Below, piece after piece: positions 4,605-47,164 of a stretch of 47,164 nucleotides of DNA. The notes under the pieces are model-generated. The model made no database searches and was not told the DNA's origin. It saw nothing but the letters and a program-made list of their open reading frames with translations. Both the position numbers and the translations under genes were made by a program. Numbering within the stretch: position 1 is the stretch's first letter; every line of letters starts with the position of its first letter. Source of the DNA: Candidatus Nanosyncoccus sp. (GTDB lineage Bacteria; Patescibacteriota; Saccharimonadia; Saccharimonadales; Saccharimonadaceae); assembly GCA_045535655.1 (NCBI GenBank), contig JAZSMA010000032.1:1-47164 (forward strand), written 5' to 3'.

Positions 4605-7583
4605 GTGAATTGTTTATATTGGAGAGTTGTGGGGAGCCCTAAAGTCATTTTGAAGCGAAAAATTTGCTTAGCGATGACCGTGTTTTTGCTTGCAATAATT
4701 AAGCTAGATGGCTCGGTTTTTGCTACCATCGACCCCAGTTATTACACACTTACTGCGACTTTACAAAACCAAAACCAAGCCATTAGCTACACGCCGGTTA
4801 CATGGAATGAAGACAAATATCTTAGCACGATGCGGACGCTCGTTGTTAATACAAATTCGCCGTCTGGATATAAAGTGTTCTTGGACGTCCCTACGTCAGA
4901 GGCGTCGGCTGGGGTGCTATTATTATCCGGTGGAACTTCTTCTAGCCCCTCTATTGCGCCAATTAATGCTACCCCAAGCACTGCGAACACTCTCACTACT
5001 AACACGTGGGGATTTGGTATCCCTAGTACTACTACTGGCCTTCCAACTAATAATTGGAGCAGTACCTATACTTCTGGAACGCCATCTTCAAGTAACACAT
5101 ACGCTGGAGTTAAAGTTAATCCAAATTACACATTAATTCGCAATAAAACTGGAACTGCCACGAACGACAGCCTTGACATTTATTATGGTATGCGGCTCGG
5201 CACGGATGTTTTGACTAATCCTGGCACATATCGAACGAATATTCAATACCATATTATATCTGAAGCGTCAAACGTGGTTGGTGGCGAGGCTACCATCAGC
5301 CCAACTTCTGGACCGAAAGCTGGTGGAACTAGCGTTACTATTACGACTTCACTGATGGCGGACTTTGTGCCTTCAGATTTAAATGTTATGATTGGTGATG
5401 GTGCTTGTGTCTCGCCAACTGGTAGTGTTAGTAGCGGTGTCCTTGTGATTACTTGCACCACACCAAAGCACCACCCAGGAGTAAATAACGTAGTAGTCAC
5501 TATTAATTCACTAGGATTAACCTACACTATCAACAATGGTTTTGAATGGATTGAAACCGGCGACGTCAGAATCACTGGTGTGCAATATGTCAATGGTATC
5601 AACGTCAGTGGCACGCCAAGTCCATCCGTAGATAACTCCGGCAATATCGACTTTGATCTTACTTTCCTTGGCGGTCAAGATAATACCACCACCCTAGAAG
5701 CAACTTACCGCATAACTGTGACAAATTCTACTGATGACGATTATGCCTTTACGCCGCCTGCTTCAAACTTAACTATCAGAATTTCTCAAACCGAAGTACG
5801 CGATATTACCTATACGCTAAGTGGCATCTCACCTGGTGACACAATTCCGGCAAATTCATCGGTATCATTTAATATTATTCTCAGCGCAGATTATGTTTCG
5901 GGTGAGCACGGCACGGAGGGCGGTATCGAAATAGACCCGGTTAGCCAAGCGACGCCATATCTAATTGGCAGCATCTACGGTAGCAACTCTGGCGATCTCT
6001 CCGGTAATCATACCTTGACCTCATTCCAAGTTGAAGTCGAGAGCACTTTTGACGAGTCTAAAACTTTCATTATTAATTCACTAAATTCTGATTTCGAAAT
6101 TGTTGACTCTAGTGGCAATGCGCTAGGCGCCCAAACTATCGCTGCAAACACTACAAATACTTACACTTTCTACATGAAAAAAGCTAGTGGAGCCGCCTTC
6201 GCTTCAGAAACTACCACCGCCGGCATTACGATTGACTATGATGGTACCTATACTAATGCCGGAGAGGTTAATATTACAGTAGATAGAGACCCGACTTATG
6301 TCGATAACCAAGCGCCAGTAATTAGTGGTGTAACTATTACGAGAAATAATGCAGTAGACGGCGAGGCAACTTTGACTTGGTCCGGGACGGATAATGTCGG
6401 TGTGGCAAGCTACGGAATCTATGTATGTACGAATACCTGCGACAATATGATTTCGGTAAATGGCTTAACCAATACATATACCTTTACCGGTTTGTCGGAT
6501 GGAACTTATAAATTTGTTGTGGTAGGTTTTGATGATGAGGGTAATACTGCTTCACAATCCGAAATAACTGGTGCGACTACCAGCCCAGGTGCAGCTTCGA
6601 GCACCGGTAATCAATCACTGAGTTGGGCTTACTCGGTTACTGGTTCTATTAACAATGGTAGATTGACTAATACGGGTAATACCGCTGCTCGAGCGGGCGG
6701 AACTTGGACGGGAACCATTACTCCGAGTAGTAGCGATTATACTACTCCATCGAGTAAGAACGATGTTACAGTTAAAATTAATGGGGTAACTACTACGAAC
6801 TTTACATATAATTCTGGCACGATAACAATTAATAGTGGCATTAATGGTCCTATCGAAATTACGGCGACTTGTCCAAGCAATGGTTGTTTGATTGAAGGCA
6901 CTATGATAGCTGTTCTAGACGAAAACGGTAGAAGAGCAACTAAGCCAATTGAAGATATTACTTATAGTGATTTGCTAGTAGTTTGGAATCACGAAACTGG
7001 AACTGTTGGCTATGTCCACCCGGCTAGAATCGAGAAAACTAAAGCATTGCCTAGCTATCAACTCACAACATTTAGCGATGGGTCTACACTAGGAACGACT
7101 AGCTGGCACGGAATATTCGATGTTGATACGAATGAGTTTGTTTCGGTAGACGATTTCAGTAGATTTGGGGTTGGTAGTAGAGTTTATAAAGTTATTGATG
7201 ATCAACTAACTCCAGTCACAGTCACAAATATCGAACGTGTAGAGCAAGAGGTTAATGTTTACTACGTCACATCGAGTATGTATTATAATATTATTTCAGA
7301 TGAATTCCTAACCACTAACGGCTACGTCATTACTTCGAACTTCTACGGCTTTGATGATAATATTACTTGGCCGTCTACTCGCGCCGAATTTATTGCCGAC
7401 CCGAATAATCTATACACTTATGCAGATTTTGCCGATATCGGCATACCGCTGAGGATGTTTAACGATCTCCGCCTTGGCGAAGCAGCTTATCTCCAAAGAT
7501 ACGGCATTACCTTACAAATGTTTAAAGATTATCTCGTGGAAAACCGAGTGATAGAAGATATGGTGCCATATGATGACGAGTAA
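4605..7583 (+). CDS. Large Ser/Thr-rich surface protein: IPT/TIG and FN3-like repeats, C-terminal Hint (intein-like) domain
   Basis: Signal-like N-terminus; ISPTSGPKAGGTSVTI (TIG); DNQAP...WSGTDNVGVASY (FN3-like); GCLIEGTMI...KPIEDI...VTVTNIE...FLTTN (Hint). Start codon uncertain. Confidence 0.75.
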   Translation: MNCLYWRVVGSPKVILKRKICLAMTVFLLAIIKLDGSVFATIDPSYYTLTATLQNQNQAISYTPVTWNEDKYLSTMRTLVVNTNSPSGYKVFLDVPTSEASAGVLLLSGGTSSSPSIAPINATPSTANTLTTNTWGFGIPSTTTGLPTNNWSSTYTSGTPSSSNTYAGVKVNPNYTLIRNKTGTATNDSLDIYYGMRLGTDVLTNPGTYRTNIQYHIISEASNVVGGEATISPTSGPKAGGTSVTITTSLMADFVPSDLNVMIGDGACVSPTGSVSSGVLVITCTTPKHHPGVNNVVVTINSLGLTYTINNGFEWIETGDVRITGVQYVNGINVSGTPSPSVDNSGNIDFDLTFLGGQDNTTTLEATYRITVTNSTDDDYAFTPPASNLTIRISQTEVRDITYTLSGISPGDTIPANSSVSFNIILSADYVSGEHGTEGGIEIDPVSQATPYLIGSIYGSNSGDLSGNHTLTSFQVEVESTFDESKTFIINSLNSDFEIVDSSGNALGAQTIAANTTNTYTFYMKKASGAAFASETTTAGITIDYDGTYTNAGEVNITVDRDPTYVDNQAPVISGVTITRNNAVDGEATLTWSGTDNVGVASYGIYVCTNTCDNMISVNGLTNTYTFTGLSDGTYKFVVVGFDDEGNTASQSEITGATTSPGAASSTGNQSLSWAYSVTGSINNGRLTNTGNTAARAGGTWTGTITPSSSDYTTPSSKNDVTVKINGVTTTNFTYNSGTITINSGINGPIEITATCPSNGCLIEGTMIAVLDENGRRATKPIEDITYSDLLVVWNHETGTVGYVHPARIEKTKALPSYQLTTFSDGSTLGTTSWHGIFDVDTNEFVSVDDFSRFGVGSRVYKVIDDQLTPVTVTNIERVEQEVNVYYVTSSMYYNIISDEFLTTNGYVITSNFYGFDDNITWPSTRAEFIADPNNLYTYADFADIGIPLRMFNDLRLGEAAYLQRYGITLQMFKDYLVENRVIEDMVPYDDE

Positions 7584-12151: not shown

Positions 12152-13291
12152 ATGAAAACTGTATATGTCGGGATGAGCGGAGGAGTCGACTCCTCAGTTT
12201 CAGCTTTGCTATTAAAAGAGCAGGGCTATCATGTTGTCGGCATTTATATGAAAAATTGGTCTAAAGATTTGCCAGGAATGAAATGTCCATGGGCAGAGGA
12301 TTTAGCGGATGCGAAGCGTGTCGCGGTTAAACTCGGGATTGATTTTGAGGTTTGGGATTTTGAGGAAGAATACCGAAAGAAGGTTGTAGATTATATGCTG
12401 GATGAGTTTAAAAAAGGTAATACGCCGAATCCAGACATTATGTGCAATCAAGAGGTTAAGTTTAAGTTGTTTTATGAAAAAGCGATGAAGGCGGGAGCTG
12501 ATTTTATCGCTACGGGGCACTATGCTAGAGTACTCCCGACGGGTCCTGCCGTCGCAGCTTCCCCCACCGTGCTCGACATACGTCTGCGCGCGGCGGGGAC
12601 CCCCCCAGCTCCGTCACCCGCCGGTGTAGCTCTTGCAAGGGCCAAAGATGAGAATAAGGATCAGACGTATTTTTTGTACAGGATTAGCGAGGAGGCGCTC
12701 TCTCGGACGATTTTTCCGATTGGGGAGATGAAAAAGCCGGAAGTGAAGAAGCTGGCAAAGGAAAAAGGGTTGCATAACGCCTATAAAAAAGAATCGATGG
12801 GGGTGTGTTTTGTTGGAGAAGTAGGGATGAAGGATTTTTTGAAAGAGTATATTGAAACTGAACCGGGGGAAATTCGCGAGATAGAAGGCGATAAGGTATT
12901 AGGTTATCATGAGGGAGCGATATTTTACACAATTGGCCAGAGGCACGGATTATATTTAAACGGTGAAAAGGGAGTAATAAACGATGGAATGCCATACTAC
13001 GTTGTAAAAAAAGATGTACAAAAAAATATTGTTTATGTTTCGAAAAATCTAAATGATGAGAATCTATGGACCGACGAATTAAAGTTAAAAGATATTTTCC
13101 TAAGAAATGCCCCGGATAAAAATAAGAACTTTCCTGTTTTAGTCCGATTGCGTCACCGGGCGCCATTAGTCCCAGCCGAGTTTGATGGCAAAAAATTAAT
13201 TTTTAAAGAAAAAATTAAACGACCAGCTTCAGGACAAAGTGCGGTCATATATGATGGCGAAGTTTGCCCAGGCGGAGGAATTATTGCATAA
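12152..13291 (+). CDS. mnmA: tRNA 2-thiouridylase MnmA
   Basis: GMSGGVDSS, PNPDIMCN, ATGHYAR, KDQTYFL, ESMGVCF, TIGQR. Confidence 0.96.
   Translation: MKTVYVGMSGGVDSSVSALLLKEQGYHVVGIYMKNWSKDLPGMKCPWAEDLADAKRVAVKLGIDFEVWDFEEEYRKKVVDYMLDEFKKGNTPNPDIMCNQEVKFKLFYEKAMKAGADFIATGHYARVLPTGPAVAASPTVLDIRLRAAGTPPAPSPAGVALARAKDENKDQTYFLYRISEEALSRTIFPIGEMKKPEVKKLAKEKGLHNAYKKESMGVCFVGEVGMKDFLKEYIETEPGEIREIEGDKVLGYHEGAIFYTIGQRHGLYLNGEKGVINDGMPYYVVKKDVQKNIVYVSKNLNDENLWTDELKLKDIFLRNAPDKNKNFPVLVRLRHRAPLVPAEFDGKKLIFKEKIKRPASGQSAVIYDGEVCPGGGIIA
12523..12637. repeat. In-frame GC-rich palindromic insertion in mnmA
   Basis: Arms tgctagag-tac...cgacgggt / acccgccg...gtag-ctcttgca, between GHYAR and KDQTYFL. Confidence 0.7.
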
Positions 13292-16836: not shown

Positions 16837-16891
16837 TTTGCTTTTGATTGAGGCGAGTTTAGTTTCTGTAAAGTCGTCTCTGAGAACGCAA

Positions 16892-16967
16892 AAAGTTTCG
16901 TTGCAAGTGAGCGAAGGTCATGAAGATAAGACTTCGCCGAGCGAAACCGGAAGCACTAACAAACTTT
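16892..16967 (+). ncRNA. Putative structured RNA element in the early-operon leader
   Basis: Stems aaagttt/aaacttt, agtg/cact, gcgaag.tc/gacttcgc; shares a TGA-GC...GC(G)AAA(C/T)CG(G/A)AAG motif with the elements at 20373 and 20915. Confidence 0.45.
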
Positions 16968-20049: not shown

Positions 20050-20263
20050 TAAACAGCATACCGACAAAATATCCGAGTTCTACTTGGGCGAATACAACGC
20101 CACGCTCGAAAGCACCATGGGAAACTTGGATGTCTTGATGCATACATTCGTAGGCAAAGAAGTCAATGACGATTTAAGCAGCATGTACCAATATTTGAGC
20201 GAGTTATCTACTGAAATCAAGCAGATTGCAGAAAGGAGGCGCAAAGACCAAAAACGCCCTTAG
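20033..20263 (+). CDS. Phage hypothetical protein
   Basis: GGAG RBS before ATG 20033. Confidence 0.55.
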   Translation: MWLKTNKQHTDKISEFYLGEYNATLESTMGNLDVLMHTFVGKEVNDDLSSMYQYLSELSTEIKQIAERRRKDQKRP

Positions 20264-20281
20264 CACATTAAATATTAAGTG

Positions 20282-20433
20282 GTTTTGCTTCTACTCCGGT
20301 CTTGAACATTGTGCAATTAGTCCGAGTTCAACGAGAGGCACTAAAGCACATTTAGATCGGACTCGCTGGGCTTGACGCTTCAGCAAATCGGAAGGCCCAG
20401 TTTAATCGTTCAAGACCGAATTAGGAGCAAAAC
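20282..20433 (+). ncRNA. Putative ~150-nt multi-stem RNA, antisense to the late-leader motif
   Basis: Closing stems gttttgcttcta/taggagcaaaac and cggtcttgaac/gttcaagaccg; inner stems agtccga/tcggact and ctgggctt/aggcccag; GTGCAATTAGTCC at 20311-20323. Confidence 0.7.
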
Positions 20434-20453
20434 ATAACATGGAGGTAATTATT

Positions 20454-20858
20454 ATGGCAAAGTTTCGCCGAGGGGTGAACCGCGTAACACCCGAACTTTA
20501 CGCGGAATTAAAACCAAAGCTAAAAACTCCAGCAGACCACAAAAAGGTTATGCGCGAGTATAAGATTGGTGATAGCACTTGTCGCTCAATCCGCAACACT
20601 GATTCTTATGAGGAATACCGAGCGCGAGTTGCTGATAAACGCAAAGCCACTCGTGACTTAGAGTCAATCGTTGAGCATGCGACTTATGATCGCGAACCAA
20701 AAGCAACAATGGTTGCTTACGAAAGTTCTAAGGAGCCAGAAGATGATGACAAACCCGGCATTGCAGCGCGCATTGTGGGTGTGTTTTTGGTAATCTGCCT
20801 AATGCTGATTGCAGCCGGCCTTACTTACGCTACTTTGAAATGGGCGTTTGGATTTTAA
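20454..20858 (+). CDS. Phage protein with C-terminal TM helix
   Basis: GGAGG RBS; basic N-terminus, hydrophobic tail. Confidence 0.7.
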   Translation: MAKFRRGVNRVTPELYAELKPKLKTPADHKKVMREYKIGDSTCRSIRNTDSYEEYRARVADKRKATRDLESIVEHATYDREPKATMVAYESSKEPEDDDKPGIAARIVGVFLVICLMLIAAGLTYATLKWAFGF

Positions 20859-28265: not shown

Positions 28266-29180
28266 CTAATATGAATTTATTAGGTTTCGGTAAAGAATAA
28301 TGGTCTGATTCGGATAAATCAGCCCACGATTCGGGATGTTATTCTTCTCTGCAATAGCCTGTGCCAAACCATCGTCTCCGAATAGTCTGTTTCCGGTATA
28401 TCCGTTATTACGAATGATTCCGCCCAATGTATCACCAACCCTTACGACATAGGTAATATCACCAGAAACCGGCGTTGGTTCAGGTGTAGGTGTCGGAGTT
28501 GGTGTTGGTTCTGGATCCGGAGTATAATCACCCGGCACAACCCATACCCAGCCGCTAATATTCATATTGTGCGTTGCGACTGTAAGCGGCACATAATTCG
28601 CATCGTTCACCATTGCAGTATTTGTTCCGGTAGAGTAGAGATACATGGCTGTGTGGCCATATTGAGTATTAAACCCACCAGAACCAATCGCGCCCTCAAT
28701 AGGCGTGTCAATGTATTTCCAACCATAATTATTCACGAGCCAAGCGGCAATATCTTTTCCGTTTCGCGGTCCGTAATCAGGATGTGCGGACGAATAATCC
28801 TTCTTTCCTGTGGCCAGATAAGCGGTGTATTTGGAGCATTGCCAACCATTCCCATTATCTGTATCGCCATCCGGTTTTCTCCGGCTCTTTACGGTTTCCA
28901 GCGTGACTGAACCACCTTGACCGGTAGCTTCGTCAGCCTCTTGCATAGTAGCTTCATCGGTTGGCCTATCTTCATTCATAATGCGGTACATGGCCGCTTC
29001 TGCATCTTCTATGAACTTCGTGGTTGCTTCTGGAATCTGCGCGTCATTACCATCGAGAGTCCGGTATTGTCCATTCTCCGATGTATGACCAAAGATTATA
29101 AACAAAGCGCAGAGGATTGTTACTCCTCCCACGATAAACCAATGTAGATTTCGTCTGATAAACTTACTTACTGCCTTCAT
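28266..29180 (-). CDS. Endolysin: N-terminal TM, CHAP-like domain, PT linker, LysM
   Basis: WQCSKY...YGHTA...DANY; PTPTPTP; YVVRVGDTLGGI...LIYPNQTI. Confidence 0.85.
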   Translation of the reverse strand: MKAVSKFIRRNLHWFIVGGVTILCALFIIFGHTSENGQYRTLDGNDAQIPEATTKFIEDAEAAMYRIMNEDRPTDEATMQEADEATGQGGSVTLETVKSRRKPDGDTDNGNGWQCSKYTAYLATGKKDYSSAHPDYGPRNGKDIAAWLVNNYGWKYIDTPIEGAIGSGGFNTQYGHTAMYLYSTGTNTAMVNDANYVPLTVATHNMNISGWVWVVPGDYTPDPEPTPTPTPTPEPTPVSGDITYVVRVGDTLGGIIRNNGYTGNRLFGDDGLAQAIAEKNNIPNRGLIYPNQTIILYRNLINSY

Positions 29181-29406
29181 CTTTCTTATCCTCCGTAATC
29201 TTTTGGCTGGTTGAGCCGAAGAAGTACATATTAATCACGGTGTTAGCAGCAAGGAAAGTTGTTACAATCTGTTCTCCTACGCCTGCGAAACCCCACGTTT
29301 TCGAGATTAATGAGACAAATGTCGCAATAGCGGATAGGATACCTGCTGCAAGCGACAGTTTCCTCTGAACTGTGAGACTTGTTTTGATTGGTTGTATATT
29401 GGCCAT
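29164..29406 (-). CDS. Putative holin
   Basis: 80 aa, two TM segments, charged C-terminus, overlaps the endolysin; AAAGGAG RBS. Confidence 0.7.
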   Translation of the reverse strand: MANIQPIKTSLTVQRKLSLAAGILSAIATFVSLISKTWGFAGVGEQIVTTFLAANTVINMYFFGSTSQKITEDKKDEGSK

Positions 29407-29431: not shown

Positions 29432-29487
29432 ACAAAAAACACCTCTGCTCTAGCAGAAGTGCAATCAGTCTAACTTAATTATATCAC
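29432..29487 (-). promoter_or_regulatory. Late leader A: extended -10 + GACTGATTGCAC + terminator (upstream of holin/lysin)
   Basis: Minus strand: TGATATAAT-taagtta-GACTGATT-GCACTTCTGC-taga-GCAGAGGTGT-TTTTTG. Confidence 0.8.
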
Positions 29488-29495
29488 AATCATGG

Positions 29496-29523
29496 ACGAG
29501 GCACTAACAGCCTAATTATAGCA
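29496..29523 (-). promoter_or_regulatory. Second promoter upstream of leader A
   Basis: Minus strand: TGCTATAAT-taggctg-TTAGTGCCTCGT. Confidence 0.55.
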
Positions 29524-29538
29524 TAAGAGCGATAATAA

Positions 29539-29569
29539 AGCGAGAGACATGGGGGGATTGTCTCTCGCT
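29539..29569 (-). terminator. Hairpin/terminator downstream of the tRNA
   Basis: agcgagagaca...tgtctctcgct. Confidence 0.55.
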
Positions 29570-29628
29570 AAGTATAGTATGGAGTTATTAATGGCTCGTT
29601 TTTGTTTTATGAATAGAGTGTATTTAGG

Positions 29629-29704
29629 TGGTAGGGGGTATTGGAGTCGAACCAATGACATCCATCGTATCAGAATGGCGCTCTACCAATTGAGCTAACC
29701 CCCT
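29629..29704 (-). tRNA. tRNA-Ile(GAT)
   Basis: AGGGGGT TA GCTC AATTGGTA GAGC G CCATT CTGATAC GATGG ATGTC ATTGG TTCGACT CCAAT ACCCCCT A CCA; 76 nt. Confidence 0.92.
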
Positions 29705-30148: not shown

Positions 30149-30199
30149 ACAAAAAACACTCCAAAGTTGGAGTGCAATTAGTCTAATTCTATTTTACCA
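30149..30199 (-). promoter_or_regulatory. Late leader B
   Basis: Minus strand: TGGTAAAAT-agaatta-GACTAATT-GCACTCCAA-ct-TTGGAGTGT-TTTTTG. Confidence 0.8.
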
Positions 30200-30411: not shown

Positions 30412-30493
30412 TGTTATAATTATGAGGTAAGTACACTTACTCGGGCAAAAAAGGCAATCCAACTGCGAGGGCCTTTTTTGTTTGTGTTATAAT
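30412..30493 (+). promoter_or_regulatory. Tandem extended -10 promoters flanking a short hairpin/terminator unit
   Basis: TGTTATAAT at 30412-30420 and 30485-30493; gaggtaagt/acttactc hairpin; caaaaaaggc/gccttttttg. Confidence 0.55.
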
Positions 30494-30520
30494 TTAATTA
30501 AGTTAAACAGGAAAATAAAA

Positions 30521-30916
30521 ATGACAAAGAAAAAGCAGGACAAAAAGAGATACATCATCATTGGTGTATGTGCATGTGTTGCTATTATTGCAGCCATAGT
30601 AGCCGTGGTATTGCTTACGCAGCCACAAAAGAAAGATCCATATCAAGAGGCATACGACCAAGCGGAGGTAATGCGATTGGACGCTATAGCCCAGCAAATC
30701 CGACTTAAGGCAGAAACCTACCATGATACGCATGGAGTCTGGCCGGAATCATTAGAGGATATTCATGAACCGGAAGATCGCCTACCGGGCATGGTATTTA
30801 ACTCATTCTCGAATATGGGCTTCCTATTGAGCTATATCGGCGTAAACGGTGAAAGAATCGTCTATTGTTCCGAGGATTTAGCCAAGACATCGCTTGGCCA
30901 AAATAATTGTCCTTAG
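30521..30916 (+). CDS. Moron: membrane-anchored pilin/GspG-like protein
   Basis: Opposite strand with its own promoter; TM helix followed by AETYHDTHGVWPESLEDI; C-terminal Cys pair. Confidence 0.6.
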   Translation: MTKKKQDKKRYIIIGVCACVAIIAAIVAVVLLTQPQKKDPYQEAYDQAEVMRLDAIAQQIRLKAETYHDTHGVWPESLEDIHEPEDRLPGMVFNSFSNMGFLLSYIGVNGERIVYCSEDLAKTSLGQNNCP

Positions 30917-38234: not shown

Positions 38235-38315
38235 ACAAAAAGCACCCACAGCGTGTGGGCGAAAAGAAACACTCACAAAACTGTGAGTGCAATTAGTCTT
38301 ATGATTATTATATCA
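38235..38315 (-). promoter_or_regulatory. Late leader C with a tandem second terminator (upstream of scaffold/capsid)
   Basis: Minus strand: TGATATAAT-aatcata-AGACTAATT-GCACTCACA-gttt-TGTGAGTGT-TTCTTTT, then GCCCACA-cgc-TGTGGGT-gcTTTTTG. Confidence 0.8.
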
Positions 38316-45381: not shown

Positions 45382-45440
45382 CAAAAAACACTTGCCAATC
45401 AATCTTGACAAGTGCAATAGTCCTTGAGTTAATTATAGCA
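45382..45440 (-). promoter_or_regulatory. Late leader D (upstream of the packaging operon)
   Basis: Minus strand: TGCTATAAT-taactca-AGGACTATT-GCACTTGTCAA-gattga-TTGGCAAGTGT-TTTTTG. Confidence 0.8.
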
Positions 45441-45595: not shown

Positions 45596-46615
45596 TTACC
45601 ATAAACTCTTGTAATATGCGTCCATGCGGCGCAACAACTTAGCTGAGTCACCTCTCTCGGCGTGAGCACGCCAGCTCCGGTAACATTCGTCTACTTTGTC
45701 TTTGGTTATGCGACCTTTCTTGGCCAACTTCACCAGCCGGAATAGTTTGCGCCGGTAGTTTTTCACATTCCTTGGTAAGACGGTTTTGACTACCTTGCCG
45801 GTGTCTGTGAGCTTGTAAATGAAGCCGAGATATTTGATGCCTTCCGTAATGGGATATATTCTCGTTTTCTTAGGATGGAGTTCAAAGCCCATAGGTTCGA
45901 GCTGAGCTGCAATTTCTTGCCAGCAATACTCGAGGTAATCCTTACTCTCATGAATGAGAATAAAATCATCCATGTATCTCGTATACAATTTGATACGTAG
46001 GCGTTCTTTAATGAAATGGTCTAAATCGTTGAGGACTGATATACCAGCAATCTGGATCATCTGGCTACCCGGCAGGAAACCCACTTCGCCGGGGTATTGG
46101 CTATACATTATTTCACAAGCCATTCCATGTATTTCAGGAGGTAAATGCTTACTGAATGTTTTCTCCACGACATCGTGCCGCATATTTGGATAATAACCCT
46201 TAATATCGCATTGTAGGACGTAGCCGTCTGTACCATGCTTTCGGTAGTATCTCTGTAAAAAGCAAACAAGCCTCCCTCGCGAGAAGTTCGTTCCTTTATT
46301 TTTCCGACAGGCTCCGTTGTCGTAAATCAGACTTTTTTCTATAGTCGGATATATCACATTATCGTTGAGGCTTCGTTGATAAACTCTATCTCGGAAGGCC
46401 ACGCCCATGACAGTCCGTACTTTACCAGAACTAATGACCGTAAATGGGCGCAATGGTCTGGAAACATACGTGCCATTTTTTAGCTGTTCTTCTAGTTTCA
46501 GCGTCTCCTCAATTATATTCAAAATGTAGTGGGCTACACTGTCTTTCCAAATTACACCCTTTTTGCATTTCATTGCGCTCTTATAAAGCGCCTCAAAACC
46601 TATAACATTATCCAT
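45596..46615 (-). CDS. DGR reverse transcriptase
   Basis: FRDRVYQ, QCDIKGYY, PGSQ, RYMDDF, YLGF; compact 339 aa with no maturase or endonuclease domain; adjacent TR and avd. Confidence 0.9.
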   Translation of the reverse strand: MDNVIGFEALYKSAMKCKKGVIWKDSVAHYILNIIEETLKLEEQLKNGTYVSRPLRPFTVISSGKVRTVMGVAFRDRVYQRSLNDNVIYPTIEKSLIYDNGACRKNKGTNFSRGRLVCFLQRYYRKHGTDGYVLQCDIKGYYPNMRHDVVEKTFSKHLPPEIHGMACEIMYSQYPGEVGFLPGSQMIQIAGISVLNDLDHFIKERLRIKLYTRYMDDFILIHESKDYLEYCWQEIAAQLEPMGFELHPKKTRIYPITEGIKYLGFIYKLTDTGKVVKTVLPRNVKNYRRKLFRLVKLAKKGRITKDKVDECYRSWRAHAERGDSAKLLRRMDAYYKSLW

Positions 46616-46789
46616 ATTTCCACCCTAGGCGCGGTGCTTATAGTGATACTGACTCGTAAGTCAATCACGTCACCGCGCAGTTGTTTGATGTTGAGGACAT
46701 AAATGTCACCAACATACAGGAATTCGGCTCCTTGTATCATACCAATAGTCCAGCGCCTTATACTATGTAACGGGCGTAAGCTGGTGCCG

Positions 46790-46925
46790 TAAGATACGAT
46801 CTGGAGCGAAGCGATTACCGGCGTTGGTGTTGTTCTGGTCTAACGAACCGTTGTTATTGCCCTGCAGCTGATTATTCGCGTTGCCATAATTCGCCGAGCG
46901 CAACCACACCACAATCACCAGCTAC
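46790..46925 (-). ncRNA. DGR template repeat (TR), ends approximate
   Basis: No start codon; conceptual translation VWLRSANYGNANNQLQGNNNGSLDQNNTNAGNRFAPDRI with 11 AAY codons; lies between avd and RT. Confidence 0.85.
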
Positions 46926-46945
46926 TTTCTAGCCTACATCCTACG

Positions 46946-47164
46946 CTATGATGAGTCATAGCGCTTTTTATCGGCATTGCGCCACTTTCTAATATAGTCG
47001 CGCGCTTCTTTTGTTATTTTTCCCCAATAAGCTATCCGTTTAGCGGATAGATGATATGTGCCGTAGGCCATATCTATACAAATCAATAATTCAGTGCATG
47101 CTTGTATGGCTTGAGTTTGGAACCTATACCTAGCCTCTTTCGCTTCTTCGTCAATTTCGCCTGT
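46946..47164 (-). CDS. avd: Avd-like DGR accessory protein (C-terminal part)
   Basis: Manual translation ...ARYRFQTQAIQACTELLICIDMA...RIAYWGKITKEARDYIRKWRNADKKRY; basic and helical, directly upstream of TR. Confidence 0.8.
   Translation of the reverse strand, partial: TGEIDEEAKEARYRFQTQAIQACTELLICIDMAYGTYHLSAKRIAYWGKITKEARDYIRKWRNADKKRYDSS

Follow-up and report, generated by a model that had tools for sequence, protein, structure and literature searches.

A co-varying second antisense site at the lysis leader of a Saccharibacteria prophage and its partner loop in an early structured RNA

Results

Genes and features of the locus

The window, by which we mean the whole stretch of 47,164 nucleotides analysed here (contig C24 of a 628-kb genome, 82% complete), contains a Saccharibacteria prophage, with siphovirus-like prophage sequence from 16985 onward. 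Early genes lie on the plus strand, and the minus strand carries those for tail, lysis, head and terminase. Of 369 genomes of the genus, 30 contained a homologous Dit gene, and the hosts of this phage family are gut Saccharibacteria. The left end of the prophage is found on another contig (G000:C54, 5522-10605), where the integrase and tRNAs lie, together with the first of the late leaders (at 7482). A scan of the prophage ORFs, many of them without a family and with the prophage extending past the window, returned no Q-family antiterminator or other late-activator family. Among five host genomes searched, RNase III was found in four (it was not found in the phage's own, 82% complete genome) and Hfq in none, four of the five being 97-99% complete.

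The lysis genes, the late leaders and the early RNA considered below are listed in Table 1. Upstream of the lysis leader lies a tRNA-Ile(GAT) insert, which we place outside the mechanism because the sister phage G229 lacks it; the tRNA itself occupies 29629-29704 (minus strand), and just one other Ile tRNA was called in the genome, with the anticodon TAT. Further upstream, a small membrane-protein gene on the opposite strand (30482-30916, plus), with its own extended -10 motifs (30412 and 30485), is moron-like and varies between relatives. At the far end of the window (45596-47164, minus) there is a reverse transcriptase (PHROG 1423) with a structured region upstream and a small ORF, an arrangement that we take to resemble a diversity-generating retroelement.

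Table 1. Coordinates in the window of the features discussed in the text.
Feature	Position	Strand	Remarks
Early structured RNA (predicted activator)	20282..20433	+	Fold z -5.8
Site a (seed)	20311..20322	+	Antisense to late-leader 5' ends
Site b	20335..20344	+	P2 loop of the conserved fold
Endolysin	28266..29180	-	PHROG 291, CHAP and LysM matches, all weak
Likely holin	29164..29406	-	Phage_holin_Dp1 match weak, below cut-off
Lysis-leader intrinsic terminator	29434..29462	-	5' arm starts within a'
Lysis-leader site a'	29459..29470	-	Pairs with site a by 11 Watson-Crick pairs and one G-U
Lysis promoter extended -10 (P-down)	29478..29486	-	Start predicted near 29471
Site b'	29498..29507	-	Predicted 5' end of P-up RNA; complementary to b
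Upstream extended -10 (P-up), TGCTATAAT	29515..29523	-	Start predicted near 29508
tRNA-Ile(GAT) and its downstream hairpin	29532..29704	-	Insulates P-up; absent in sister G229
Late leader	30150..30199	-	Extended -10, a' (30172-30183), terminator
Late leader of scaffold/capsid operon	38265..38315	-	Extended -10, a' (38287-38298), terminator
Late leader of terminase operon	45385..45440	-	Extended -10, variant a', terminator

Late leaders share a seed with an early structured RNA

The late leaders are 35-50 nt long and have a common order of elements, namely an extended -10, a 12-mer common to the leaders (site a') some 7 nt further on, a hairpin and a U-run, with the promoters being motif predictions throughout. 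Four leaders with this anatomy lie in the window (-10 elements at 29486, 30199, 38315 and 45440) and one lies on contig C54. The exact antisense of the common 12-mer is carried by an intergenic structured RNA of the early region, which has a long closing stem (P1, 20282-20307 with 20408-20433), the seed (site a) in the junction, a hairpin bearing site b (P2) and a further hairpin (P3).

Many related prophages have the same leader anatomy with other common seeds, and those with the early region carry the antisense seed at the same place, just 3' of the long closing stem, in a similar fold. The 19 RNAs that we aligned contained 15 distinct seeds, each antisense to the leaders of its own phage. 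Several related prophages (G445, G403, G316, G004, G154 and fragments) had no such leaders, and distant viral loci were mostly without a common seed; searches with the exact seed in 401 family genomes and in viral and metagenome contigs gave close kin and chance matches only. Rfam models matched only tRNA in the window, and nothing in 20150-20550 up to an E-value of 5. We also noted prophages with new seeds (L246, L247 and L250), in which the lysis leader has a tandem promoter and a hairpin.

Across 66 leaders from 20 phages, seed pairing always covered at least 2 nt (median 4) of the 5' arm of the terminator, and in 59 of them the paired stretch began within 3 nt of the predicted start. Blocking the seed-paired stretch raised the mean energy of the terminator hairpin from -13.2 to -4.3 kcal/mol over the 66 leaders. 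Since site a overlaps the terminator arm in every leader, activation is the predicted outcome. The early RNA thus very probably switches on the terminator-blocked late leaders by antitermination, and is likely to be a natural small transcription-activating RNA that would stand in place of a Q-type protein.

A second match between the early RNA and the lysis leader

The original prediction was that the lysis leader has a second antisense site behind a second promoter. The 10-mer on which it was based, GAGGCACTAA, is indeed identical at sites b and b', and occurs exactly twice in the window and nowhere else in the 628-kb genome. It begins 7 nt after an upstream extended -10, as claimed, and the two matches are colinear in RNA and target, although separated by gaps of different length (12 nt in the early RNA vs 27 nt in the lysis leader). 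The placement of b in a hairpin loop held in part: in the lowest-energy fold of the window RNA, site b is partly paired with the seed (unpaired probability 0.46), while it is looped only in an alternative fold about 3 kcal/mol higher, which is the one that matches the relatives.

Besides the two seed copies, the window contains eight other exact matches of at least 10 nt to the 175-nt RNA region, the flagged one being among the 10-mers. In 224 out of 20,000 shuffles (1.1%) we obtained a 10-mer antisense to the first 20 nt after any of the 16 TGnTATAAT sites. In the window, where chance alone would give such a match about 1% of the time, it is suggestive, and it is the relatives that show it to be real.

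Sites b and b' co-vary across relatives

The sister phage G229 has the same seed a as the window, and its b' (TTAGCGTCTC) likewise sits 7 nt after the upstream -10, while its RNA bears GAGACGCTAA. Between the window and G229 there are two changes in each partner, all of them compensatory. Compensatory positions in b and b' were also found in other sister pairs with a common seed a, namely one each in G057/G035 and G315/G260 and two each in G060/G343 and G315/G434. In L165 the 10-mer of the window is retained although both flanks have diverged. The conservation in relatives on which the original prediction had been staked is thus present, with the second site kept through compensatory changes.

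To score this more widely, we defined b as the 7 nt preceding a conserved column of the RNA alignment, a column picked after the first cases had been seen. The 18 phages scored were those with a lysis leader (G082, which has none, falls outside), and 16 of them had a perfect 7-nt complement of this alignment-anchored b within 125 nt upstream of the lysis -10, with 14 different b sequences represented. G319 has one uncompensated mismatch, and G435 matches at 6 of 7 positions. In controls, a perfect b complement was present in 2 out of 182 non-cognate combinations and in 1 out of 42 of the phages' own other leaders. The mean energy of the cognate b-b' duplexes was -11.7, compared with -8.6 ± 0.44 for permuted ones, and none of 200,000 permutations was as good, a value which overstates the significance because the relatives are non-independent and the first 14 phages had served to define the loop window.

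This duplex comparison and three further counts still include an RNA candidate from G439, since dropped (it lies within an ORF and is without b), and a false window leader (20788). With these included, the lysis leader had the best duplex energy among a phage's own leaders in 18 of 21 cases (6.5 expected), an upstream -10 motif stood ahead of 18 of 21 lysis leaders vs 5 of 49 others, and a' was weaker in the lysis leader than in the other leaders in 11 of 21 phages. The last figure amounts to no systematic weakening, and we rejected the idea that the lysis a' is weakened.

We then took a' and b' from seven further lysis leaders and searched for the RNA, which was recovered in four of the seven phages. 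The G254 RNA was the single exact match in the whole genome (control: 0) and the G361 RNA was also an exact match, while the G438 and G437 RNAs had an exact b and a seed with one mismatch; the relaxed search, with one mismatch allowed per site, gave four spurious matches besides. No RNA was found in G436, G439 and G448, the records of which seem to be without most of the early operon.

These comparisons show the common anatomy of the leaders, complementarity at a and at b, and co-variation of both sites across the phage family. Pairing between b and b' is almost certainly real. That the 10-mer is a chance match had in its favour the shuffling result and the several other 10-mers that match the RNA; with compensatory changes in sisters, cognate complements in 16 of 18 phages and forward recovery of the RNA, we consider it already refuted by the co-variation, with a negligible residual probability. 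The observation is real and conserved, and is part of an RNA circuit that, as far as our literature search extends, is undescribed.

Anatomy and position of the b' module

In the window and in G229, the P-up RNA is predicted to have b' as a tail at its 5' end. Most relatives have b' in a small hairpin, where it occupies the loop at 11-22 nt from the predicted start. This hairpin rests on single-sequence folds and our model R1 is sequence-only, because no consensus pairs were obtained with RNAalifold from 17 b' modules aligned by MAFFT. Model R1 found none of the short-type modules (window, G229, G057, G035 and G347). A YUNR motif, which is short and common, occurs just 5' of b' in 13 of 18 phages, and is absent from the window with its 5' tail.

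The position of the module is variable. The distance from b' to the lysis -10 ranges from 13 to 74 nt, and the spacing between the P-up and P-down -10 elements is 36-37 bp in the window and G229 and reaches 117 bp elsewhere. By a loose rule, and with doubtful cases included, b' and the lysis promoter are set apart by a terminator-like signal in 11 of 21 cases. A consensus P-down -10 was present in every lysis leader examined. In L048 the b' module sits ahead of a non-lysis leader facing the lysis cassette, in G435 it is found by itself in the early region and no a' leader follows it, and G151 and G053 have a similar candidate tandem promoter at a non-lysis leader. In G082, b' was not found by the promoter pattern. 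In another clade, seen in G082 (C23, about 13150-13260) and L259 (2577-2660), there is a separate promoter-hairpin-terminator unit and, upstream of the scaffold leader, a second hairpin, after which comes a candidate b'.

The second site had been proposed to provide extra or delayed control specific to the holin-endolysin operon. The site has an upstream promoter motif of its own and is tied to the leader of the lysis genes in 16 of the 18 phages scored. We, too, prefer the reading of extra lysis control, while strict specificity fails, given the modules away from the lysis genes in L048 and G435. Variable distance, intervening terminator-like signals and these two modules also favour a separate RNA, so that b' RNA is likely to be an antagonist in its own right rather than half of a bipartite target.

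A possible third pairing

We scanned 30 leaders generally for a third RNA pair and obtained a single convincing case, involving 16845-16870 (plus) of the window and about 6950-7010 (minus) of G000:C54. Here a leader with promoter and terminator, placed upstream of the integrase and an 87-aa ORF, contains a 15-nt stretch antisense to the structured region before the first early gene and, after the hairpin, a further 7-nt match. The arrangement was seen only in this phage and in G086 (C6, 80379 and 113259). These two regions could possibly form a third RNA pair, an early switch separated by integration; if so, it would extend the RNA-only late switch considered below to a lysis-lysogeny circuit made entirely of RNA, in hosts where no Hfq was detected. 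Just before the ribosome site of the first early gene, positions 16950-16959 (plus) match site b at 9 of 10 positions, and b' RNA could therefore also pair with the early mRNA.

Discussion

A model for late gene control

Taken as a whole, we give a probability of about 0.5 to a model in which the leaders are opened by the early RNA and b' RNA from P-up acts as its brake. The sigma70-type late promoters would fire constantly, with polymerase stopping at the terminator. The early RNA would be made only with the early operon, perhaps excised by RNase III at P1, and would pair with the emerging 5' end of the leader, taking about 4 base pairs off the base of the terminator and thus allowing read-through. 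The short P-up RNA would expose b', either at its 5' end, as in this phage, or, as in most relatives, within a hairpin loop of the U-turn type. In what is a less sure step, this RNA would capture the P2 loop of the activator and have to be out-titrated. We propose that b' RNA would be present first, because its promoter is unattenuated, and that, as it is made at the lysis promoter, the lysis operon would be the one best protected against leak in the lysogen and would open after all the others.

As for the sign of the b interaction, we infer a brake in preference to a booster for three reasons: P-down bypasses b' and is nevertheless kept everywhere, b' is frequently found on an RNA of its own, and lysis is the step that has to be restrained. 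A more general picture, in which an RNA-only late switch has a multi-target antiterminator RNA replacing Q and a loop-kissing anti-antiterminator setting the threshold and timing of lysis, is tentative and falls a little short of even odds.

Alternative readings

The b-b' kiss could instead load the activator onto the nascent P-up transcript, after which a would pair with a' in cis, making lysis read-through efficient or two-step; this comes nearest to the bipartite target of the original prediction and to T-box logic. One RNA can carry both sites in the window and in 9 others of the 21, since no terminator-like signal intervenes, and for these a tether fits equally well. In nearly all cases the module is upstream of an a' leader by no more than about 120 nt, the window has both sites on a single 74-nt RNA whose 5' end can mask a', and in the G458 clade b' can form a terminator-like hairpin that pairing with b would break. 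Against this, P-down with its consensus -10 bypasses b', terminator-like signals separate b' from a' in about half of the cases, and the G435 module is followed by no a' leader. A related idea, that b' unlocks a self-paired seed, works in the window fold (0.42 to 0.69) and was rejected as a general explanation, as binding at b opened the seed in just 3 of 18 RNAs. We consider a tether or booster rather unlikely.

Promoter interference, with P-up occluding P-down and b pairing deciding whether polymerase from P-up enters P-down, would mean that the activator itself delays lysis (an incoherent feed-forward). The -10 spacing in the window and G229 is such that polymerase footprints would overlap, and the L048 module points convergently at the lysis cassette; the longest spacings, as well as terminator-like hairpins 30-50 nt from b' in G152, G442 and G438, which pairing would leave untouched, make this quite improbable. 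Finally, a phage protein, Q-like or operator-binding, could use the 12-mers as its sites in DNA or RNA, with the RNA matches as by-products. Many early ORFs are without a family and may include a protein partner, and the ORF adjoining the early RNA has a homologue in G060. We find this highly improbable, as every early copy found is antisense to the leaders and has the same place in a conserved fold, the second site co-varies letter for letter, no late-activator family was matched among the ORFs scanned, and single substitutions in a' were G-U-compatible in 8 of 14 cases (a weak indication).

Significance

Phage late genes are known to be switched on by proteins. If the brake model is true, the family would present a new kind of viral switch and a natural counterpart of the STARs discussed below, in which one RNA opens several terminators and another RNA acts as counter-regulator. 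With at least 15 seed and 14 loop specificities, it would offer possibly orthogonal RNA activators and inhibitors, as well as a first handle on gene control in Patescibacteria phages.

Comparison with known systems

In a literature search directed at main texts, mostly outside subscription journals, we found no paper describing such a system. The nearest known natural cases are sRNA antitermination of Rho-dependent termination and T-boxes. In the latter a trans RNA, the ligand tRNA, pairs with the leader at two sites and prevents formation of an intrinsic terminator; a T-box leader, however, is a large conserved fold, whereas the leaders here are 35-50 nt long and gave no T-box match in Rfam. 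The early RNA also differs from Hfq-dependent sRNAs in that the host Hfq on which these rely was found in none of the five genomes.

The original prediction likened the two matches to the a/b double sites of the C4 antisense RNA, for which Rfam contains models. C4 of P1 and P7 is, like the early RNA, a trans-acting structured phage RNA with phage-specific sequences (PMC12197685). Both have two pairing segments. Two colinear sites on one RNA are present in the window, while across the family they are frequently divided by a terminator-like signal and in G435 they are detached. The comparison breaks down over the sign of control: C4 represses an antirepressor (PMC12197685), whereas the early RNA, which overlaps the terminator arm when paired, is predicted to be an activator of late operons. 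It is furthermore about 150 nt long and closed by a long stem, and a separate hairpin often carries its second site. With no Rfam match, other targets and the opposite predicted sign, the early RNA is not a member of the C4 family.

Lambda Q is a protein that acts on polymerase at one promoter. The PR'-tR' region that it controls resembles the present one in having an always-on late promoter, a short terminated leader and an activator made early; these elements are all present here, with the exception of a Q-family protein, which was not found. The antisense aQ RNA restrains Q (PMC12197685), much as b' RNA is proposed to restrain the early RNA. It is cis-antisense to the Q mRNA, whereas here activator and restrainer would both be trans RNAs, pairing over 7-12 nt.

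A YUNR U-turn motif has been reported for loop-loop antisense recognition, and loop changes in such systems create new specificity groups (PMC4485353). In most relatives b' is similarly placed, 3' of a YUNR motif and in a hairpin loop. The pairs described there are cis-encoded and fully complementary, unlike b and b', which lie about 9 kb apart and pair over 7-10 nt.

The predicted mechanism at site a resembles that of the engineered small transcription-activating RNAs (STARs), in which a trans RNA keeps a leader's intrinsic terminator from forming by pairing with its 5' side (10.1101/022772), as the early RNA, complementary to the terminator's 5' side in all 66 leaders, is predicted to do. 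According to this text of 2015, no small RNA that activates transcription, whether natural or synthetic, was previously known (10.1101/022772). STARs are engineered with one target each, whereas the early RNA is natural, would serve 3-6 late promoters and has a second partner.
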